Of a DNA stretch of 64,000 nucleotides, positions 2,360 to 63,039 are shown piece by piece. Numbering within the stretch: the stretch's first letter is position 1; every line of letters starts with the position of its first letter. Below the pieces are notes generated by a model. It ran no database searches, was not told the origin of the DNA, and saw nothing but the letters and a program-made list of their open reading frames with translations. The position numbers were made by a program, and so were the translations under genes. This DNA is from an archaeon (GTDB taxonomy: Archaea > Nanobdellota > Nanobdellia > Pacearchaeales > GW2011-AR1): contig JBDRNS010000005.1 of the NCBI GenBank assembly GCA_043810865.1, positions 2,821 to 66,820 on the forward strand. Reading direction: 5' to 3'.

Positions 2360-2656
2360 GCGAAAATATTTTCTTGAAGTTATATAAGGTTTTTGTTTTG
2401 GGTGGAATTTTGATTTTTATTTGCGTTCGCCAAAGCCAAGATAAATTCTTTCAGAATTTAGTATCGGTGCTCACGATTATTGACCTAGTTCCGTTTTATA
2501 TTTTCGACAAGGAAGGAATTTCGCTAAAAAAGTTTTAGTGCAATAATTTTCTAATCAATATCTGAACGAGAGGAAGGAAATTAAAAGCGAGCCGAAGGCG
2601 AGCTAAATTAATGCCCCCAAATTTTTATAAACTTGTTCTTATGTTTTATTTTATCA

Positions 2657-2859
2657 GCCCCAATCGCATAAGGGTATTGCACAAGATTGGAAAGCAGAAC
2701 CGAGGTTCCGCACCTCCTATGAATAAGAAAAGTTCAGCAGGAACGCACCTCCTATTGGTGAAAGGGGGTTCGGCGCCCAAAGAAACTACAATAGTTTCCG
2801 AGAGAAAAACAAACATCTTGGTCCGCAAGGACATCCAGGTTCGAGTCCTGGTTGGGGCG
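2657..2859 (+). tRNA. tRNA-Ser (anticodon GGA), type II long variable arm, interrupted by an intron of about 122 nt (2693-2814)
   Basis: 7-bp acceptor GCCCCAA/TTGGGGC; D-arm GCAT-AAGGGTA-TTGC; anticodon stem CAAGA/TCTTG; loop TTGGAA|A gives anticodon GGA; variable arm GTCC-GCAA-GGAC; T-arm CCAGG-TTCGAGT-CCTGG; discriminator G; poly-T follows. Intron boundaries approximate. Confidence 0.55.
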
Positions 2860-2868
2860 TTTTTGAAA

Positions 2869-3432
2869 ATGGAAAAAGATTACAAAAAAGAATTTATTGA
2901 AATAATTAAAAATGATAATTTTTTGACTGAACTGTTAAAAATAGTCAGGGAACTTGATTTGCCTGATTGGTTTGTTGTTGCAGGAGTTGTCAGGAACAGG
3001 GTTTGGGATTTTCTGCATGGATATGGGCAAAATACCGAACTGAGAGATGTTGATGTTATTTATTTTGATAATTCCAAGTTTAATTCTGAAGAAGATAAAA
3101 GAATTGAAAAGAAACTAAGAGAAAAAAGAAATGATATAGAATGGGATGTTTTTAATCAAGCCCGAAGACATCTTAAAAATCAGAAAAGTGTAAATTCTTC
3201 TGAAGAGGCACTTTTTTATTATAGTGAGACAGCTAATTGCATTGGTGTGAGGTTAAACAAAGACGGCAGTTTTTTTGTTTGTGCTCCTTACGGTTTTGAG
3301 GACTTGATGAATTTGATAGTTAAGCCAGTTCCAGAACCTTATCAGAACATGGAGTTGTTTAATTTGAGAACAAAAGAAAAAGGATGGTTTGAAAAGTGGC
3401 CGAAATTGAAATTAATTACTTCACCACAATAA
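2869..3432 (+). CDS. nucleotidyltransferase family protein (NTP_transf_6-like)
   Basis: 'WFVVAGVVRNRVWDFLHGYG' and 'DVDVIYFD' motifs; start taken at the internal Met (MEKDYKK) because the upstream part of the ORF is the tRNA gene. Confidence 0.45.
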   Translation: MEKDYKKEFIEIIKNDNFLTELLKIVRELDLPDWFVVAGVVRNRVWDFLHGYGQNTELRDVDVIYFDNSKFNSEEDKRIEKKLREKRNDIEWDVFNQARRHLKNQKSVNSSEEALFYYSETANCIGVRLNKDGSFFVCAPYGFEDLMNLIVKPVPEPYQNMELFNLRTKEKGWFEKWPKLKLITSPQ

Positions 3433-4717: not shown

Positions 4718-4790
4718 AGCAAAAATTTATTTCTAAATTAGTTCCACTCTGTTCGCAATCCTACATAAATTTTTGTCCCTATTTAATTTA

Positions 4791-4950
4791 TTCCCACCCG
4801 CCCACCCCCAGAAAATTAATTAATAAAAATCCCAAAAATAATTACTAAAATTACTTTTTACTACAAAATCATTCACCATCACAAAATTTGTCTCTTTTCG
4901 CCCGATTGATGAAATAAATTTAATCTAAAAATTCCGAGAAAGTTATAAAA
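4791..4950. repeat. Mosaic intergenic repeat family, copy A (CCCACCCGCCCACCC + AATTAATAA + TTTGTCTC...GATTGAT...TTTAAT module)
   Basis: Shares 'TTCCCACCCGCCCACCC...AAAATTAATTAATAA' and 'AAATTTGTCTC..CG..C..ATTGAT.A..TTTAAT' with copies B, C, D, F. Confidence 0.6.
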
Positions 4951-5018
4951 TACAGGTTGTGTTTATATTAACAGTTTAAATTAATATGCAAACGAAGTGA
5001 GCATAAATTTATGAAAAT

Positions 5019-8918: not shown

Positions 8919-10130
8919 ATGGCGAAAATAAATAATGAAGTTCCTGAACTGAATGTTGGCGTAGTCGGGCATATAGATCACGGGAAGACGAGTTTGCTAA
9001 GCAAGCTTACAGGGAAATTTACAGATACGCATTCGGAGGAATTGAAAAGAGGAATTACAATTAAACTAGGTTATGCTGATATGACGATTTATAAGTGCGG
9101 CGATGAATTTTTTAGTAAAGAACAAAAAGGAAAAAAATGCGAGCCGTTCAGATACATAAGTTTTGTTGATGCTCCCGGGCATGAAATGCTTATGGCTACA
9201 ATGCTGTCAGGGGCGGCGATAACAGATGTTGCGATTCTTGTAATAGCTGCGAATGAGGGAATAAAACCGCAGACAAGAGAACATTTCATGGCATTGCAGG
9301 CAAAAAAAATAAAAAAACTTATTATTGTGCAAAATAAAATTGATTTGGTTAGCAAGGAAAAAGCAGTTAAGAATTATGGTGAAATAAAAGATTTAATCAA
9401 GGGAACGATTTATGAAAATACACCGATTATCCCTGTTTCGACTTTGCAGGAAATCAATATAAATAATTTGGTAAAAGAACTAGCGGAAGTGGAAATCCCC
9501 AAGAGAGAAACAAACACTGAACCGATTTTTTTGGTTGCGCGAAGTTTTGACATAAACAAGCCCGGAACAGAAATAAAAAATCTTAAGGGAGGAGTTCTCG
9601 GAGGAATTTTGAAGAGAGGGATTTTGAAAGTCGGTGATGAAATTGAGATAAAGCCGGGACTGGATTTGAAAAAAGGAAATCAGAATTTTTATCAAACACT
9701 TACGACAAAAATTCTCTCGCTTCACAAAGGAAACAAATCTGTTGACGAGATTTTGCCTGGAGCGAGTATTTCAATTGAGACATCTCTTGATCCTTTTCTG
9801 ACAAAATCAGATTCGCTTACCGGCTCAGTAGTTTCCCTGGAAAATGTTTTGCCAGAACTGAAAAATAACATAAAATTAAATTTTAAACTTTTCAGCGAAG
9901 TTTTTGGTTCTGCGAACAAACAGGTAATTGAGCCGCTGAAAGTCAAGGAAATGCTTATGCTTAGTGTTAATACAACAATTACTGTCGGTGTTATAGAGAA
10001 AATAAAAGGAAATGAAATTGAACTTAATCTTAATATTCCTATTGTTGCGCTTGAAGGAAGCAATGTGGGAATAGCACGAAATATAAACGGGCACTGGCGA
10101 CTGATTGGGTGGGGAGAGATAACAGGATGA
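8919..10130 (+). CDS. eif2g: translation initiation factor aIF2 gamma subunit
   Basis: 'NVGVVGHIDHGKTSL', 'DAPGHE', 'QNKIDLV'; 403 aa, EF-Tu-like. Confidence 0.85.
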   Translation: MAKINNEVPELNVGVVGHIDHGKTSLLSKLTGKFTDTHSEELKRGITIKLGYADMTIYKCGDEFFSKEQKGKKCEPFRYISFVDAPGHEMLMATMLSGAAITDVAILVIAANEGIKPQTREHFMALQAKKIKKLIIVQNKIDLVSKEKAVKNYGEIKDLIKGTIYENTPIIPVSTLQEININNLVKELAEVEIPKRETNTEPIFLVARSFDINKPGTEIKNLKGGVLGGILKRGILKVGDEIEIKPGLDLKKGNQNFYQTLTTKILSLHKGNKSVDEILPGASISIETSLDPFLTKSDSLTGSVVSLENVLPELKNNIKLNFKLFSEVFGSANKQVIEPLKVKEMLMLSVNTTITVGVIEKIKGNEIELNLNIPIVALEGSNVGIARNINGHWRLIGWGEITG

Positions 10131-11927: not shown

Positions 11928-14375
11928 TTATTCTTCCCCGTTGAGGTCCTGCACTCTGATTAAATCAGTAACATAGTCGCCCTGATGAAGTTTTACTATT
12001 CTGACACCCTGCGCTGTGCGTCCCATAATCCTGATATTTTTCAAACTTGTTCTTATAACAATTCCTTTTGCAGTTGTTATTATTATGTTGTCATCTTCGT
12101 TGACTGAAATTGTTGTAACAACGTCGCCTGTTTTTTCGGAGACCTTCAGGTTGATTACTCCTTTTCCTCCGCGTGCTGTTTTTCTGTAATCACTGACATT
12201 TGTTCTTTTTCCAAATCCGTTTTTTGTCACAGTCAAAACAGCTTTTGTATTTAATATTTCCAAACTTACAACTTCATCGTTTGCATGCAGACGTATTCCT
12301 GTAACACCATAACTTGCTCTTCCTGTATCCCGCACGTCGTCGCTGTTGAATCTTACAGCCATTCCTTTTTTTGTTGCGAGAAGAACTTCCTGCCCTTTTT
12401 TCAAAACCTGCACATCAATCAATGCATCTGAATTGTCGTTTGGGAGATTCATTGCTCTTACTCCTGAGGCCCTTGGCTTTGAGAAATTATTCAAAGATAT
12501 TTTCTTCACAACTCCTTTTTTTGTTGCCATGAACAAAAAATCGTCGAAGTTTTTTACAGAGATTACATTTGTAATTTTTTCATTTTTCAAGTTTAGGATG
12601 TTTATGATTGCCTTGCTTTTTCCGTATCTTTCTGCTTCGGGAATTTCATACGCTTTCAGCCACAAGACCCTTCCTCTTGATGTGAAGAACATCAGATAAT
12701 CATGAGTTGAGCATGTTATCATTTGCTTTACAAAATCACCTGTTGCAAGATTGCTTCCTATGACTCCTTTTCCGCCTCTTTTTTGTTCTCTGTATGTCTT
12801 CACATCCATTCTTTTACAATACCCTTTTTCTGTTATTGTCACGACAACTTCTTTTTTCTGAACCAAATCCTTTTCGGAGATTTCAGAAATTTTGTTCAGA
12901 ACCTGCGTTCGTCTTTCATCGCCGTATTTCTTTTTGATTTCAGTTATTTCCTTTACAATTATTTTCAGGACTTCTTTTATGTCAGAAAGAGTTTTTTCGT
13001 ATTCGGCAATTTTGCTTTTTAATTCGTCCTGTTCTTTTTTAAGTTTTTCATGTTCCAGGGAGGTTAATTGCTGAAGTTTTGTTTCAAGAACCGCCTGTCC
13101 CTGTCTTTTGCTGAGAGAAAATTTTTTCATCAGAATTTCAAGAGCTTCAGCACCTGTCTTGGATTTTTTAATCAGAGAAATAATTTCATCAATGTTTTTC
13201 AGAGCGGTAAGCAATCCTGAAACAATTTCCATACGATCTTTTGCTTTTTTCAACTCGAATTTGGTCCTGTTTGTTATTATTAATTTTCTGTATTTTACAT
13301 ATTCGCTGACAATTTCTTTCAGATTCAAAACTTTTGGCTGCCCGTCGACAAGTGCAAGAATATTCACGTTAAATGAATCCTGCAGACGCGTGTATTTGTG
13401 AAGAGCATTTATAACAAATTTTGAATTTGTGCCTTTTCTTAATTCGAGCACAATCCTTATTTTTCCTTTTGATGATTCATCTCTTAAATCAGAAACATCC
13501 TTGATTTTTTTGTCCTGAACCATTTTCGCAATTTGTTCAACCAAAGTTGATTTGTTAATCATGTAAGGAATTTCTGTTATGACAATCAAGTCCCTGTTTT
13601 TTACTGCTTCGGTTGTTATTTTTCCTCTGAGCATTAGTTTTCCTTTTCCTGTTTTGTAAAGTTCTGTCATGTCTCCTGAAACAGTTCCTCCTGTGGGAAA
13701 GTCAGGCGCTTTTACTATTTGGCAAAGTTCTTCAACTGACATTTCGGGATTTTTTATAAAAGCCATAATTGCATCGCAAACTTCTGTCAGGTTATGTGGA
13801 GGAATGTTTGTTGCCATACCGACTGCTATACCTGTTGCTCCGTTGAGAATTAATGCAGGAAGTTTTCCCGGGAGAAGAAGCGGCTCTTTGAGCGAGTTGT
13901 CAAAATTCGGGACAAATTTCACAGTTTCTTTTTCAATGTCTTCTATTAATTCAAGAGCTATTTTCGTGAATTTTGCTTCAGTATATCTGTATGCAGCAGG
14001 AGGGTCACCGTCGATAGAACCGAAGTTTCCCTGCCCGAAAACAAAAGGATAGCGAAGAGAGAAATTCTGAGCCATTCTTACCAGTGCATCGTAAACAGCT
14101 ATATCTCCGTGAGGATGAAATTTACCGATAACATCTCCAACAATTCTTGCGGATTTTTTTGTCTGTGTTTCAGGTTTCAAACCCATAAGATTCATTGCAT
14201 AAAGAATTCTTCTCTGGACAGGTTTTAGTCCGTCTTCAATTGCAGGTATTGCACGCGAGACAATAACAGACATGGCGTAATCAAGATACGCTTTTTTCAT
14301 TTCTGTTGAGACCTCTGAGTTGATTACTCCTTTCTCATTTTGTCCGTTTTTGTTTTCGTCAGTCATCTTGTTCAT
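11928..14375 (-). CDS. gyrA: DNA gyrase subunit A
   Basis: 'GKFHPHGD', active-site 'AAYRYTE' Tyr region, C-terminal beta-pinwheel repeats; 815 aa. Confidence 0.9.
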
Positions 14376-19949: not shown

Positions 19950-20067
19950 TTTAATAAATCTTAGAACGAGTCCCTCGCGAAAGAGTTTCGTTCATCGGAT
20001 ATTTTAGTGAAAAGAAATGAGTTTTTAAAGTTTGCGTGTTAAAATTTTTGTTTCTTTTGTTTAAATT

Positions 20068-20161
20068 CTCTCACTCCAAAGTCGCTCGTTATTAATGAAT
20101 TGTTAACATTGAATCTTCATAATATCATTAATATCTAAATCGTGAGCAAAGCGAGCGCATG
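20068..20161. repeat. GC-box intergenic repeat, copy G (CTCCAAAGTCGCTCGT ... ATCGTGAGCAAAGCGAGCGC inverted boxes)
   Basis: 3' box is the reverse complement of the 'GCGTTCGCTTCGCTCACGA' box of copy D; 5' box matches the copy F tail. Confidence 0.5.
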
Positions 20162-20192: not shown

Positions 20193-21317
20193 TTAATTTC
20201 TCCACCTTACCTCAACATCATCTGTTCTTTGTCTTGGTTTTATGTCCAAATCCTGCGCGCTTTTTCCAGAGAACTTTATTCCTGCTCTGAACATGATTTC
20301 TCCGAGGAATGCAATCATTGTGCCATTATCAACGAGAAGAGAATTTTCAGGAACAAAGAATTTTGCTCCTCTTTCCCTGCACATAATCCTGCACATTTCC
20401 TGAAGGCGTTTGTTGCATCCTACTCCTCCTCCTAACAATAATTCGGTTTTTCCTGTATGTGCAAGAGCACGTTCTGCAACTTCAACAAGCATTGCAAAGA
20501 CGGTTTCTTGCAGAGAATATGATAAGTCCTCGAGAGTGTAATTTGTCTCGCTATTATTCCCTCCGCCGGCGCCCCGACCACCCGCCCCCTTAGAAGTTGC
20601 TAATTGAGAAACAATTTTTTGATTAATATTCCTCCCCTGATTTTTTTGAGCAGGTAAATTTTTATTTATTTTTTCTAATTTTTGTTTCAGATTTGTTAAA
20701 ATTCCTGAGAGTGCAATGTCCATGCCTTTTACTTTGTATGGAAGTTCAATATAATTTTTTCCTTTTAATGCAAGAGATTCTATTTCCGGACCACCGGGAA
20801 ATCCCAATCCAGAATATCTTGCGAAAGTGTCAATAAAATTCCCAATACCTGTGTCGAGAGTTTCACCGAAAATTCTGTATTTTCCCGACGCGTATGCAAT
20901 TATTTGTGTGTTTGCTCCGGATGTGTAGAGCATTACCGGATTTTTGGCTCCTGTTGTTTTTCCGATTTCAAGATGCGCGATGCAATGATTTACAGGAACT
21001 AACGGCTTGTTTAATTTCAAAGCCAAAGATTTTGCAAATTTTATTCCTTCGAGCAAACAGGGAGACAAGCCAGGGCCTTGTGAAAAAGCAATTGCGTCAA
21101 TTTCATTTTCTTTAATTCCTGAATTTTTTATCGCTTTATTGTAAATTTTTTTGGAAATCAAGTTGTGATGTTTTGCAGCTTCTGTAGGAATTATCCCTCC
21201 TTTTTCTGTCGTGTAAGTGTCTTTTACATTTGCCAAAACCTGCGAGTTTTTTACAATTCCAATTCCAAAAGTATGCGCGGTTGATTCAATTCCCAGAATT
21301 ATTTTCCCAGTTTTCAT
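20193..21317 (-). CDS. kae1: tRNA N6-adenosine threonylcarbamoyltransferase Kae1, with a low-complexity Gly-rich insertion
   Basis: '[16 protein letters not shown]', 'HxxAH' ('HCIAHLEIG'), '[12 protein letters not shown]'; insert '[16 protein letters not shown]'. Confidence 0.8.
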
Positions 21318-24239: not shown

Positions 24240-24860
24240 ATGATAATTATTTTTATCGGGATTCAGGGGAGCGGGAAAGGGACACAGGCAAAACTGCTTG
24301 CAGATAAACTTAAAATCCCGGGCATTTCCACCGGCGATGTTCTCAGAAGCGTGGAGGGAAAACTGAAAGAAAAAGTTGATAATGTGATGAACAGAGGAGA
24401 ACTTCTTTCTGCTGACTTAGTCATGGAATTGCTTAAGGAAAGAATTTCAAACAAAGATTGCAAAAACGGATTTATACTCGACGGGTTTCCGAGAGATCTT
24501 GAGCAGGCGGAGAAATTTGATGCAAATCTTGATGCGGATTTTATTATTGAACTTGAAATTTCAGACAAGGAGGTTTTCAGGCGACTGGAAGGAAGACGTT
24601 TGTGTCCGAAGTGCGGGAGAGGATATAATGTTGTAACATCTCCAAAGCCCAAGAAAGATAATCTGTGTGATATTGACGGTGCTGAACTTGTCAGGAGAGC
24701 AGATGATACAGAGGATTCCATAAAAAAGAGAATAGAAATTTATCATGAAGAAACCGAGCCGATTTTGAAACGCTACAAGGATAAAATTATAAAGATAAAC
24801 GGTGAGCAAAAGATTGAAAATATTTTTGAAGATATTCTTGAGAAACTGAGAATAAAATAA
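24240..24860 (+). CDS. adk: adenylate kinase (long form with zinc-binding lid)
   Basis: 'GIQGSGKGTQ' P-loop, 'GFILDGFPR', lid 'CPKCGRGYN...CD'. Confidence 0.85.
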   Translation: MIIIFIGIQGSGKGTQAKLLADKLKIPGISTGDVLRSVEGKLKEKVDNVMNRGELLSADLVMELLKERISNKDCKNGFILDGFPRDLEQAEKFDANLDADFIIELEISDKEVFRRLEGRRLCPKCGRGYNVVTSPKPKKDNLCDIDGAELVRRADDTEDSIKKRIEIYHEETEPILKRYKDKIIKINGEQKIENIFEDILEKLRIK

Positions 24861-26057: not shown

Positions 26058-26177
26058 CTGAAGAGTAATTATTTAAATTTATTTCTTAAGTTAGTTCATT
26101 AACAATTCCACACAAAAATTTATTCTGCTTAATTTGTTTCCTTCTACTCACGACCTAATTTTTTCTCTTATTAAATT

Positions 26178-26420
26178 GTTCCCACCCACCTCAAAAACAA
26201 ATTAATTAATAATGAAATTCTTGAAGAATAATAATCTCTACCACAAAGTTGCTTGCCCACCCAAAGAACTTTTTTAACTAATTTTCACCCACCCGAAATT
26301 TGTCTCACTCGCAAACTCACCCGAATTGATAATTTAAAATTTAATAGAGAAAGTTTTTTAGTAGGAACATTAGAGGTTGCAGGATTACTAGAAAATTGCT
26401 TATTTAGATTAGAAGAATCT
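26178..26420. repeat. Mosaic intergenic repeat family, copy B
   Basis: 'GTTCCCACCCACC...AATTAATTAATAA', 'AAATTTGTCTCACTCGCAAACTCACCCGAATTGATAATTTAAAATTTAATAGAGAAAGTTTTTTAG', '...TTAGAAGAATC'. Confidence 0.6.
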
Positions 26421-26440
26421 GTTAAAATTTTTTAAGAAAT

Positions 26441-31248: not shown

Positions 31249-31374
31249 ATTGCGTTCGCTTAACTCACTATTGATAATTTTAAATCTTTTTATTGTAATT
31301 TGTTCCCACCCGCCCACCCTTCAAGAAAATTTTAATAAAGAGTATTTTTTAGCAAGGAGGTTAGAAGTTGCATG
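31249..31374. repeat. Mosaic intergenic repeat family, copy C
   Basis: 'GCGTTCGCTTAACTCACTATTGATAATTTTAAAT', 'GTTCCCACCCGCCCACCC', 'TTTTAATAAAGAGTATTTTTTAGCAAGGAGGTTAGAAGT'. Confidence 0.6.
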
Positions 31375-31496
31375 AAATTTATTTTCTTTTTTTAAATTAT
31401 TCCTACTTTACTCGTAAAAGCAATTATTGATAGCGAGATAAATAAGGCGAGCAATGTTTCAACAAAATTTATAACCCTTTCTTTCTTTTTGGTTTT

Positions 31497-33473: not shown

Positions 33474-33561
33474 AAATACCTTTTATTTTTACTAATTCTT
33501 TTTTATTTTATTTAAGATAAGTTGTTTAGAAATTTATCCTTTCTGATTGATTAAACATTTT

Positions 33562-33656
33562 GCGCTCACTTCGTTCACGATTAATAAGGGTATTAATTAA
33601 AAAATTACCTGTTTTGTGTTAACAATTAGATTATACGGGTGAAGCGAGACAAATTT
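33562..33656. repeat. GC-box intergenic repeat, copy H
   Basis: 'GCGCTCACTTCGTTCACGA' 19-mer is identical to the reverse complement of a 19-mer in copy I (60468-60490); 3' box 'GGGTGAAGCGAGACAAATTT'. Confidence 0.55.
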
Positions 33657-39778: not shown

Positions 39779-40024
39779 TTTTTAAATCTTTCTGTTTTGT
39801 TATTATTATAGAATTAATACAGATTAAGGATGTGTCTTTTTTGAGTGGAAAGAAACATATAAAAACTTTTCATCATTAAATTTTTGGTAATAATAAAGAG
39901 GTAGACAACCGATGAAAAAGAAAGGAGCAAAGGGAAAGAAATCTAAGAAATAAGTTAACTCTTTTTAATTTTATTTTTCTTTTTATTTTTCTTTTTATTT
40001 TTTAAGTTTTTGTTTTTTATAAAT

Positions 40025-40288
40025 TGCGTTCGCTTCGCTCACGAATTGATAATTTAATTTTAATAGAGAAAGATTTTTGAGTTGAGAGATTGAAATTAAT
40101 TTTTTGTTTTTAACTTTTAATTTTGTTCCCACCCGCCCACCCCTAAAAATAGTTAATAAAAAAGATTTTTTAGCATAGGGTTAGAATCCCAATAATTTGA
40201 TTAACTATCCAGAAGTTCTTTTTGTTAACATTAAGCCAATAAGCGAGCACGAAGTGCGAGCGAAGAAAGGTGGGTGGAGCGAAAGAAA
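40025..40288. repeat. Mosaic intergenic repeat family, copy D (most complete copy)
   Basis: 'GCGTTCGCTTCGCTCACGAATTGATAATTTAATTTTAATAGAGAAAGATTTTT', 'GTTCCCACCCGCCCACCCC', 'AGTTAATAAAAAAGATTTTTTAGCATAGGGTTAGAATCC', terminal 'GCGAGCACGAAGTGCGAGCGAAG...GGTGGGTGGAGCG'. Confidence 0.65.
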
Positions 40289-49056: not shown

Positions 49057-49178
49057 CGCCCCGACCAGGAATCGAACCTGGATGTCCAAAAGGACCGCGA
49101 GTTCAGTGCAGTTCTTAGAAGGTGCGGAACCTCGGTTCTGCGTTCGAGTCGCGTGCAGTACCATTGTGCCATCGGGGC
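49057..49178 (-). tRNA. tRNA-Ser (anticodon CGA), type II, with about 41-nt intron (49102-49142)
   Basis: Acceptor GCCCCGA/TCGGGGC, anticodon stem CGCGA/TCGCG, loop CTCGAA|C, variable arm GTCC-TTTT-GGAC, T-arm CCAGG-TTCGATT-CCTGG, discriminator G; intron has central GCAG/CTGC helix (BHB-like). Confidence 0.6.
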
Positions 49179-50828: not shown

Positions 50829-50869
50829 TTAAATTTATTCTTCTTTAATTTAATCTTTACCTAAAGTTT

Positions 50870-51021
50870 GCCTCACTCGTAAACTCGTTCGGGATTGATA
50901 AAAAATTTAATAAAAAAAGATTTTTTAGCGGTGAGATTAGAAGTGCAGGTAATTGATTAACATTTATTCGGAGTTTTTTTATTAACAATTTACTTCAATC
51001 GTGAGCAGAGCGAACGCAAAG
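50870..51021. repeat. Mosaic intergenic repeat family, copy E
   Basis: 'GCCTCACTCG...CGTTCGGGATTGATAAAAAATTTAATAAAAAAAGATTTTTTAGCGGTGAGATTAGAAGTGCAGG'; 3' 'CAATCGTGAGCAGAGCGAACGC' is the reverse complement of the copy D 5' box. Confidence 0.6.
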
Positions 51022-60299: not shown

Positions 60300-60340
60300 T
60301 TTTCAATGTGAAACAAACAGGATTATTTATTTGTCTGCTC

Positions 60341-60493
60341 GTTTCACTCGCAGATATTAATATAAATTATTAAATAAATAATTCTTTAGTCCATAAATCA
60401 CTACCGGTTGATTTCTTTTAATTTGAATTGTCAATGATGAGCGAAGCGAGGGAAATTATTGATAACAAACTCGTGAACGAAGTGAGCGCGAGA
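60341..60493. repeat. GC-box intergenic repeat, copy I
   Basis: 'TTGTCTGCTCGTTTCACTCGCAGATATTAAT' and 'GATGAGCGAAGCGAGGG...CTCGTGAACGAAGTGAGCGCGAG' (reverse complement of the copy H box). Confidence 0.55.
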
Positions 60494-62651: not shown

Positions 62652-62726
62652 TTACACCTCTTTATTATATATCTTACAACATATATTATGTATTTTTAGT
62701 TTTTAAATTTTGTTTATTTGTATCAT

Positions 62727-62940
62727 TCGCTTTGCTCGTTCGGATTGATGATTAAAATTTTTTTGTTAATCTGTTCCCCGCCCACCCACCTCTCAAAAAT
62801 AATTAATAAGAAAAGATTTCTTAGCGATGATATTAGAATCACAAACAATTTGTTTTGTTTTTGTAAATTAGGTTCGCTCCAAAGTCGCCCGTGATTATCT
62901 GGCTCGGTTCCAGACATTCGTCAAGGAATTTCGCTTAAAG
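62727..62940. repeat. Mosaic intergenic repeat family, copy F
   Basis: 'CGCTTTGCTCGTTCGGATTGATGATTAAAATTT', 'GTTCCCCGCCCACCCACC', 'AATAATTAATAAGAAAAGATTTCTTAGCGATGATATTAGAATC', 'GGTTCGCTCCAAAGTCGCCCGTGATTA'. Confidence 0.6.
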
Positions 62941-63039
62941 AAATATTAATACATTAAATTTATCTGTGGAAAATTCGAGCAGAGCCGGATTTGGAATTGT
63001 ATTAATAGTGAGCGGTAGCGACGGAAATTTTCATAAAAT

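Follow-up and report, generated by a model that had tools for sequence, protein, structure and literature searches.

The 64,000-nt stretch of DNA analysed here (contig JBDRNS010000005.1 of assembly GCA_043810865.1, positions 2,821 to 66,820; hereafter the window) carries a C-rich motif, TT-CCCA-CCCG-CCCA-CCC, which we call the C-box and which is one module of a non-coding mosaic repeat family of ten elements (r1 to r10, 90-310 nt). Read on the G strand, the C-box is (YGGG)4, a three-tetrad quadruplex motif with one-base loops. Considering conservation, variation and orientation jointly, we propose that the C-box is a DNA-level, strand-polar quadruplex core of these intergenic repeats, in which the four G3 runs are kept and the orientation is tied to the replication strand rather than to transcription. 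We put the probability of this joint reading at about one half.

Quadruplex motifs in the window

Exact copies of the 15-mer CCCACCCGCCCACCC occur on the plus strand at 4793-4807 (in r1; the last C-run reaches 4809), 31305-31319 (in r4) and 40128-40142 (in r5; the run reaches 40143). Allowing two mismatches still yields these three matches, and 100 dinucleotide-preserving shuffles yield a mean of 0.00. Canonical quadruplex motifs of any kind (G3+N1-7 x4, either strand) number four in the window, as compared with 0.05 expected under a second-order Markov model; three of the four are the C-box copies at 4793, 31305 and 40128. The fourth, GGGATTCAGGGGAGCGGGAAAGGG at 24258-24281 on the plus strand, lies within overlapping open reading frames (ORFs), outside the repeats, and is the sole canonical quadruplex motif besides the C-box. 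A first-pass annotation of this DNA, made from the letters alone, had considered the recurrence of the motif unlikely by chance and had placed it in the canonical quadruplex class; the counts bear out the former, and the three exact copies are indeed textbook three-tetrad motifs with single-base loops. All of its motif coordinates were correct on checking, including those of the variant at 62776-62790, the degenerate versions in 'copy B' and the opposite-strand box at 40269-40281. Its figure of approximately 33% GC for the genome needs adjusting, since the window measures 35.2% G+C.

Four runs of at least three G, with loops of 1-7 nt, are present at 4793, 31305 and 40128 and absent at 62776 and 26181, so the latter two cannot be counted as full four-tract motifs. 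The variant at 62776-62790, CCCCGCCCACCCACC, has G-runs of 2, 3, 3 and 4, and 'copy B' (26058-26440) contains CCCACCCACC at 26181-26190 together with CCCACCC at 26256 and 26288. The sequence GGTGGGTGGAGCG at 40269-40281, on the plus strand, is a partial reverse-complement copy of the C-box. Consistent with its description as a part of the repeats, the full motif is confined to the repeat elements within the window; only the heptamer CCCACCC is also found elsewhere, at 10107 (minus strand), 30987, 41840 and 44931. As a G-strand oligonucleotide, the motif is d(AGGGGTGGGCGGGTGGGAAC), with natural variants GGGCGGGTGGGCGGG and, for the 62776 copy, GGTGGGTGGGCGGGG. ViennaRNA with quadruplex energies predicts three tetrads on the minus strand at each of the three exact copies and no more than two at 62776; the energy model puts the quadruplex-aware fold at ~-40 kcal/mol, and at ~-6 kcal/mol when the quadruplex term is omitted.

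G-runs are conserved while loops vary

The 17-mer TTCCCACCCGCCCACCC is identical at 17/17 positions in r1, r4 and r5, whereas the aligned flanks of these elements are 52-65% identical, and the excess conservation of the 17-mer over the flanks gives P values of 1e-5 to 7e-4 per pair of window copies. Given that C-runs should decay in an A/T-rich genome, we take this identity to indicate constraint beyond shared descent. The claim of a fixed position within the repeat family thus stands, in that the motif fills one slot of the elements and is more constrained than its surroundings.

Variation within the core was scored in the loci of other genomes that carry the exact 17-mer, by collecting additional copies with no more than three substitutions, at any position; copies were kept if they lay in family context. 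With 3 loop and 12 run positions, 20% of changes are expected to fall in loops. Among these secondary copies, those in Dehalococcoidia- and Streptomyces-type contexts carry 30 loop changes and 2 run changes (p = 3e-19), and those in low-GC loci carry 14 and 8 (p = 1e-5; this set includes some coding hits, at locus L154). Two DPANN examples, L113 (CCCGCCCACCCGCCC) and L147 (CCCGCCCTCCCGCCC), have all three loops changed and all runs kept, with similar flanks. A search that admitted loops of 1-4 nt added a few copies in context whose loops measure 2-3 nt and whose four runs are intact; these copies break the strict period-4 register. On the G strand, T or C fills the loops and A is rare. Pyrimidine single-base loops give quadruplexes higher stability, and the observed preference agrees with this rule. 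We conclude that the pattern of kept runs and varied loops is the one that a quadruplex predicts; it fits a protein that reads C-triplets less well, and plain inheritance does not predict it.

Orientation follows strand composition rather than genes

The six window elements with a determinable orientation all lie on the plus strand, and C-boxes on the same contig tend to share an orientation (5/5 in the window, 2/2 in L159, 3/3 in L147, 2/2 in L113, and 2/2 or more in L041). No such rule connects the C-box to its flanking genes. In the low-GC cases, the nearest upstream gene is on the C-box strand 11 times and on the other strand 12 times, all four gene arrangements occur, and distances range from a few nt to >600 nt.

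Strand composition was measured at the third codon positions of plus-strand versus minus-strand genes, which separates it from coding-strand effects; the uncorrected GC skew of the loci, in which the coding strand is a confounder, was dropped. Whatever the gene orientation, the plus strand of the window has more G than C at third positions (+0.226; bootstrap confidence interval 0.19-0.26) and more T than A (-0.108). This asymmetry is uniform across four 16-kb bins, which hints that replication runs in one direction throughout the 64 kb. When the measure is oriented by the C-box, the strand with the C-box has more T than A in 9/9 independent low-GC loci and more G than C in 21/27 mid- or high-GC loci. 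The leading strand is usually G- and T-rich. By this skew, the C-rich form would be on the leading strand, and the quadruplex-forming G-rich strand would be the leading-strand template. Because orientation follows strand composition and not genes, a replication-linked, DNA-level role fits better than a transcript-level role. The first-pass annotation had suggested, from recurrence, a structural or regulatory role, of which pausing, protein recognition and recombination would be hypothetical forms. Recurrence alone is not independent evidence, since the copies are repeats of one element family; run conservation, loop variation and polarity are what speak for such a role.

In the mechanism that we propose, the G-rich minus strand would fold into a parallel G-quadruplex whenever it is single-stranded, and selection would keep the four G3 runs rather than the exact sequence. 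With its orientation coupled to strand composition and not to the direction of genes, the element would have a role, or a mode of spread, that is tied to replication strand identity. It may act as a signal to the replication fork or a helicase, or as a mark for strand-specific insertion of the element, or the other orientation may be counter-selected. Folding in vivo, the identity of the leading strand and what the structure does are parts of this scheme that we infer.

Several observations weigh against this proposal. The full fourth G-run is lost in 2 of the 5 window copies (26181 and 62776). In r6, r3b and r5a, the slot of the C-box is filled by CTCACTCGYAAACTC... or GCGTTCGCTTCGCTCACG, which are incapable of forming a quadruplex, and the basic role of the slot may for that reason not need one. 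Folding rests on an energy model and is thus a prediction. Polarity in the window is counted over six elements, because the inverted terminal boxes of r2, r8, r9 and r10 look alike after a flip and these elements cannot be oriented. Co-orientation is not strict in bacterial loci (L119, L124, L125, L022 and L042), and the leading-strand assignment rests on the skew of a DNA fragment without a mapped origin. The coding hits at L154 make the low-GC test of loops versus runs weaker. Most foreign copies were located by the exact 17-mer, the one loop variant searched genome-wide; of the copies in these loci, the secondary ones alone escape that bias.

The C-box is a module of a mosaic repeat family

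The family was defined by BLAST of long spacers against the window, MAFFT alignment and an nhmmer profile. Its elements are bounded by inverted-repeat boxes and occupy most window spacers >200 nt. Imperfect terminal inverted repeats of ~20-26 nt (TTTGCGTTCGCTYYGCTCACGA ... TCGTGAGCRRAGCGAACGCAAA), small size, the lack of an ORF and many copies are all present; the boxes were read from the sequence with both strands matched, and the right-end profile matches on the reverse strand are weak. A full unit consists of TTTGY, a pyrimidine-rich box, ~10 nt of A/T, TTAATAAAAAAGATTTTTTAGC, GAGATTAGAA, a short A/T-rich stretch and a right box that is purine-rich and reverse-complementary to the left one (compare the left box of r5, TTGCGTTCGCTTCGCTCACGAATTG, with the reverse complement of the right box of r6, TTTGCGTTCGCTCTGCTCACGATTG). 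The C-box fills the slot of the left-type box in r1, r3, r4, r5 and r7, ~10 nt upstream of the conserved A/T block, and appears to be derived from the box native to the family by enrichment in C (compare CTCACTCG with CCCACCCG). The make-up is mosaic: r5 comprises two tandem units, r3 and r7 are composite, and r2, r8, r9 and r10 consist of little beyond two terminal boxes. The features are as follows (G4, G-quadruplex).

40126..40143, minus strand: C-box / G4 core of r5; TTCCCACCCGCCCACCCC on the plus strand, GGGGTGGGCGGGTGGGAA on the minus strand; three-tetrad fold predicted
31303..31319, minus strand: C-box / G4 core of r4; exact copy
4791..4809, minus strand: C-box / G4 core of r1; exact copy, last run C5
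62774..62790, minus strand: variant C-box of r7, TTCCCCGCCCACCCACC; three complete runs and a CC, with the loops in permuted order; two-tetrad fold only (predicted)
26179..26190, minus strand: truncated C-box of r3, TTCCCACCCACC; one CCCR unit missing; CCCACCC half-boxes at 26256 and 26288
40269..40281, plus strand: partial reverse-complement box GGTGGGTGGAGCG; right end of r5, adjoining the purine-rich right terminal box
40024..40285, plus strand: r5; left box TTGCGTTCGCTTCGCTCACGAATTGATAA, then a first unit without C-box
within 40024..40285, plus strand: second unit of r5, with C-box; TTTGTT-C-box, ~10 nt, TTAATAAAAAAGATTTTTTAGC, GGGTTAGAA, then right box GCGAGCACGAAGTGCGAGCGAAG plus GGTGGGTGG
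31250..31455, plus strand: r4; between divergent genes, a 124-aa ORF and arginyl-tRNA synthetase
4738..5007, plus strand: r1; between convergent genes
62717..63027, plus strand: r7; composite of a C-box unit, then an r2-like unit
26133..26420, plus strand: r3 ('copy B'); composite of a degenerate C-box unit and a unit with a CTCACTCGCAAACTCACCCG box
50867..51020, plus strand: r6; full unit without C-box; slot is CTCACTCGTAAACTCGTTCGGG; right box CGTGAGCAGAGCGAACGCAAA, reverse-complementary to the left box of r5
20066..20159, no strand assigned: r2; short, terminal boxes only; cannot be oriented
33560..33653, no strand assigned: r9; short, terminal boxes only
60330..60492, no strand assigned: r8; terminal boxes only
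2420..2607, no strand assigned: r10; terminal boxes only; GGGTGGAA half-box just upstream, at 2400-2407

The members that lack a C-box (2420-2607, 20066-20159, 33560-33653, 50867-51020 and 60330-60492) have terminal boxes of the form TTTGCGYTCRCTTCGYTCACGA and its reverse complement, built of YYCRC units. Directly upstream of r5, at 39955-40021, is a T-rich tandem repeat of ~4-5 units of 12 nt (TTTTCTTTTTAT-like).

Rfam 15 at gathering score, applied to the window and 26 related loci, returned only tRNAs, and at a relaxed threshold nothing credible was found over r5. As DNA, whole elements fold no better than shuffles (r6, z -0.67; r9, z -0.05; r2, z -1.09), and the folds of r6, r9 and r2 contain no stable palindromic hairpin unit of the kind that characterizes repetitive extragenic palindromic (REP) sequences and bacterial interspersed mosaic elements (BIMEs). 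The C-box is the loop of a flanking hairpin or cruciform in three Rhodobacterales loci (z -4 to -8) and not in DPANN copies (mean z -0.29). A role as promoter or terminator for neighbouring genes was rejected, as there is no fixed distance or orientation and the nearest start is ~35 to >600 nt away on either strand; a scan for sigma-70 promoters and terminators carries no information in an archaeon. Split-tRNA leaders or trans-pairing complementary sequences were dismissed because no tRNA halves are adjacent, C/D-box small RNAs because no box C/D pairs were seen by eye, and origin recognition box (ORB) repeats of replication origins because the sequence is unlike them and the copies extend over 58 kb in one orientation. 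No transposase was recognized among the 20 flanking or large window ORFs scanned, and no consistent target-site duplication was apparent at the element boundaries read from the sequence. The subterminal hairpins and fixed target of IS200/IS605 elements are likewise lacking, and no Y1 transposase was identified, a genome-wide search not having been made.

The same core occurs in other genomes

High-GC genomes dominate among the listed matches of a contig scan for the 17-mer. The exact 17-mer is also present in Woesearchaeota and Pacearchaeota metagenome-assembled genomes (L020, L041 and L113, among the matches listed) and in ~20 low-GC, DPANN-like metagenome contigs, many of them from similar groundwater samples, where it is always intergenic; the number of hits expected in low-GC DNA, estimated from base composition, is far below one. 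Three matches to viral contigs were uninformative. In the literature searched, the exact 15-mer was not found, and the only papers with shorter strings deal with subjects other than prokaryotic repeats.

The core has different surroundings in different groups. In Dehalococcoidia, ..GCGTYTTCTT comes before it, and AGAAAGTTT and REP-like hairpins come after it; in Streptomyces, it lies within tandem units of ~100 nt; and in Thermoanaerobaculia, it is flanked by GGAATTN heptamers. At four sites in L108 (260, 790, 3275 and 5568) and in ~25 other Dehalococcoidia loci, the module reads ..AACATGGGCGTTGTTCTT, (CCCN)3CCC, tAGGAAAGT and a hairpin, CAGGGGGACACCCCCTG; the L108 modules are downstream of genes (tautomerase, FtsH and DUF1385), all on the gene strand. 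The Streptomyces loci L042 (3020-3460) and L013 (2110-2400) are ~100-nt tandem repeats with TTTCCCACCCGCCCACCCGTG or the loop variants CCCGCCCGCCCACCC and CCCACCCGCCCGCCC, beside G+C-rich hairpins, and S. longispororuber JCM 4784 and Streptomyces sp. G45 each have many such tandem loci per genome. The Thermoanaerobaculia-like loci L126/L129, L156, L157, L048 and L148 have the GGAATTN heptamers on one side of the 17-mer and AACGTT-type hexamers on the other, and some have a second C-rich box ~40 nt downstream. In the Rhodobacterales loci L064, L098 and L114, the 17-mer plus CA is the loop of G+C-rich hairpins of 13-17 bp (duplex z -4 to -8), and the stems differ across the three species, so that they co-vary around a constant loop. 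Two pairs of related Woesearchaeota-like contigs, L113 and L123, and L135 and L155, have a C-box at what is apparently the same site, with an identical 17-mer and slightly diverged flanks.

These occurrences invite a broader and more tentative proposal, which we regard as doubtful at present: that (YGGG)4 with a 3' AA is a widespread quadruplex element kept by selection, repeatedly recruited as the core of intergenic repeats in DPANN archaea, Dehalococcoidia, Streptomyces and Thermoanaerobaculia and in Rhodobacterales hairpin loops, with a consistent polarity in which the C-rich strand is leading-type. Recurrence across phyla and polarity are the parts that would exceed known precedent, if upheld in an unbiased census.

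Alternative explanations

Among the alternatives, the one that we take most seriously, while considering it unlikely, is that the motif is a passive passenger. It would spread with a repeat resembling REP sequences or miniature inverted-repeat transposable elements (MITEs), (CCCR)n would have arisen by slippage from a CTCACTCG-type terminal box, and the quadruplex potential would be incidental. In the slot that they share, C-box and type-1 box can be aligned with mainly T-to-C differences, the loss and permutation of units at 26181 and 62776 are typical of slippage, members lacking a C-box are as frequent as members that carry it, and syntenic relatives lack the elements. A passenger would not, however, be expected to stay identical at 17/17 positions beside flanks at 52-65% identity when an AT-rich genome should favour C-to-T decay, nor does this account agree with run-preserving loop variation in several unrelated repeat families or with the retention of the core at apparently orthologous sites in the Woesearchaeota contigs L113 and L123 despite differing flanks. 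Rather improbable, in our estimation, is a sequence-specific protein that reads period-4 C-triplets in duplex, C-rich single-stranded DNA or RNA, the repeats being arrays of YYCRC boxes in both orientations. KH-type domains bind C-triplets in eukaryotes. Both box types are short direct repeats of YYCRC-like units, the 5' TT and the A-rich 3' side are conserved along with the box, and a triplet reader would also be expected to keep triplets while spacers vary. Yet copies with 2-3 nt loops break the register and keep four runs, the loop-base preference matches quadruplex stability, a core found in archaea and several bacterial phyla would need a shared reader, and no candidate protein was found.

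We give little credence to a transcript-level element, whether a promoter or terminator cassette or a small RNA (a minus-strand RNA quadruplex or a plus-strand C-rich RNA). Each unit has TATA-like boxes, with TATA-like A/T blocks on both sides, the TTAATAAAAAAGATTTTTTAGC block is conserved, and the A6-GA-T6 block would give oligo-T terminators on both strands; in L113, L123 and L142, a good TATA box and an ATG follow the G-rich strand, and several DPANN copies lie 5-36 nt after a stop codon or tRNA with a T-run before them. Against this, distance and orientation to gene starts or ends are not fixed, no Rfam family matches, the fold of whole elements does not exceed that of shuffles (z -0.05 to -1.1), DPANN copies have no general flanking stem (mean z -0.29), and polarity tracks strand composition rather than transcription. 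Very improbable is an i-motif on the C-rich plus strand as the active structure in place of the quadruplex. Four C3 runs are present, and by the skew the C-rich strand would be the lagging-strand template and hence the more exposed single strand. C3 runs with one-base loops nevertheless form poor i-motifs, among the least stable near neutral pH, and the preference for T or C in the G-strand loops fits the stability rules of quadruplexes. The first-pass annotation had paired quadruplex and i-motif; the quadruplex half gains comparative support, and the i-motif is the weaker reading. We conclude that i-motif, promoter or terminator readings of the C-box are less likely than the strand-polar quadruplex.

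Comparison with known systems

The closest precedent is the recurrent quadruplex motifs (rPQS) of Methanomicrobiaceae, which are identical or near-identical and interspersed, all intergenic, often between convergent genes and oriented independently of genes (Chashchina et al. 2021, PMC8044849). Their authors argued for a DNA-level role and showed folding in vitro, and found no pattern relative to origins; in these motifs, the runs are G4-6, the central loop is 3-5 nt long, and a complementary C-rich tract invariably comes next, competing by forming a hairpin or triplex (PMC8044849). The C-box shares with rPQS the interspersion of identical quadruplex motifs in one genome, the intergenic location and the gene-independent orientation. 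It differs in that its loops are all 1 nt and its flanks are A/T-rich. The window copies have neither a central loop of 3-5 nt nor, immediately on the 3' side, a complementary C-rich tract of 10-12 nt; the only complementary tract lies at a distance of 125 nt, in r5. The C-box is furthermore a module of a larger mosaic bounded by inverted repeats, in a DPANN host of 35% G+C, with a polarity in strand composition and a fold that is predicted only.

REP sequences and BIMEs are short, non-coding, high-copy intergenic modules in variable order, and a REP is a stable palindromic hairpin. The window elements resemble them in the variable order of modules in intergenic spacers, as do the Dehalococcoidia and Streptomyces cores in lying beside REP-like G+C-rich hairpins, but, unlike REPs, fold no better than shuffles. 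MITEs are small, non-coding and multi-copy, with terminal inverted repeats, and their cut-and-paste spread does not predict a single orientation. Like MITEs, the window elements are non-coding and 90-310 nt long, with imperfect terminal inverted repeats and diverged copies, and are absent from syntenic relatives; unlike MITEs, all orientable copies face one way. No consistent target-site duplication was found at the boundaries read, and no transposase of a parent transposon among the 20 flanking or large ORFs scanned. IS200/IS605 elements have subterminal hairpins, no inverted terminal repeats and a fixed 4-5 nt target; Ton-Hoang et al. reportedly showed in 2010 that they transpose as single strands, with a strong orientation bias relative to the replication strand and the active strand on the lagging-strand template. 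The bias relative to the replication strand (6/6 on a uniformly skewed segment and 9/9 low-GC loci), with a probable lagging-template orientation of the C-rich plus strand, is shared with IS200/IS605, whereas the subterminal hairpins and fixed target are not.

The quadruplex GGGTGGGTTGGGTGGGG at pilE of Neisseria gonorrhoeae, beside a small-RNA promoter, is said to drive pilin recombination through its structure rather than its sequence (Cahoon and Seifert, in reports of 2009 and 2013). It resembles the C-box in having G3 runs and an intergenic position beside promoter-like sequence, its pyrimidine loops being 1-2 nt, but pilE is a single-copy locus, whereas the C-box is multi-copy and has no linked recombination system. 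FtsK-orienting polar sequences (KOPS, GGGNAGGG) and Chi sites are short (5-8-mers) and dispersed within genes, and it is the leading strand that carries their G-rich form. The C-box is likewise G-rich, strand-polar and spaced roughly every 10-20 kb, but it is intergenic only and part of a larger repeat, and its G-rich form is on the opposite strand.

Host and neighbouring genes

The window encodes diphthamide synthase, Kae1, an L7Ae/L30e-type protein and an intron-containing tRNA, a gene content that is archaeal, and the next relatives of its arginyl-tRNA synthetase are 65-71% identical and labelled Nanoarchaeota or Pacearchaeota. From this gene content and these relatives, the window is, on sequence grounds, a chromosome segment of a Pacearchaeota-like, ultra-small (DPANN) archaeon. 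Its coding share is ~90%. Two relatives that are syntenic around the arginyl- and isoleucyl-tRNA synthetase genes (L161, a JGI contig, and L163/L164, from Hainich groundwater; arginyl-tRNA synthetase 68-71% identical) show 40-50 nt of spacer at the sites that r4 and r5 take up in the window, and the 15-21 kb of these contigs contain no C-box, type-1 box or quadruplex motif. This difference reflects lineage-specific gain or loss; because the syntenic relatives are distant, we do not take it as proof of recent mobility.

A full-length DNA gyrase A subunit is encoded at 11928-14375. The intron-containing tRNA (49057-49178, minus strand, 122 nt, Rfam) has a paralogue-like inverted copy at 2654-2723 plus 2820-2870 on the plus strand (83% and 80% complementary), with an intervening sequence ~100 nt longer, that ARAGORN and Rfam missed; the ORF called at 2611-3432 probably begins downstream of this tRNA-like copy (2654-2870). 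A C-rich run at 20555-20599 (G4Hunter -1.88) is part of the minus-strand Kae1/TsaD ORF, where it specifies a Gly-rich insertion (the Pfam match covers 311 residues for a 264-position model), and is unrelated to the repeats. L154 has a similar C-rich run, and synteny with L154 through it was considered and rejected, the run being Gly-rich coding sequence and tblastn showing no synteny.

Implications

The mosaic repeat family described here was previously undescribed and accounts for most long spacers of an otherwise compact genome. To our knowledge, evidence for functional prokaryotic G-quadruplexes, beyond by-products of base composition, is thin, and there is almost none for DPANN archaea. 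The family amounts to a test set provided by nature, in a genome whose composition (35% G+C) cannot give rise to the motif: it comprises loop variants, run-broken variants (62776 and 26181), non-quadruplex boxes in the same slot and a measurable polarity. Should the broader, tentative proposal be true, (YGGG)4 would be a replication-linked structural signal, acting in strand-specific insertion, in pausing of the fork or helicase on the leading-strand template, or in lagging-strand priming on CCC. If the polarity holds genome-wide, a defined non-B DNA structure would be linked to replication strand identity under an MCM-type replisome.

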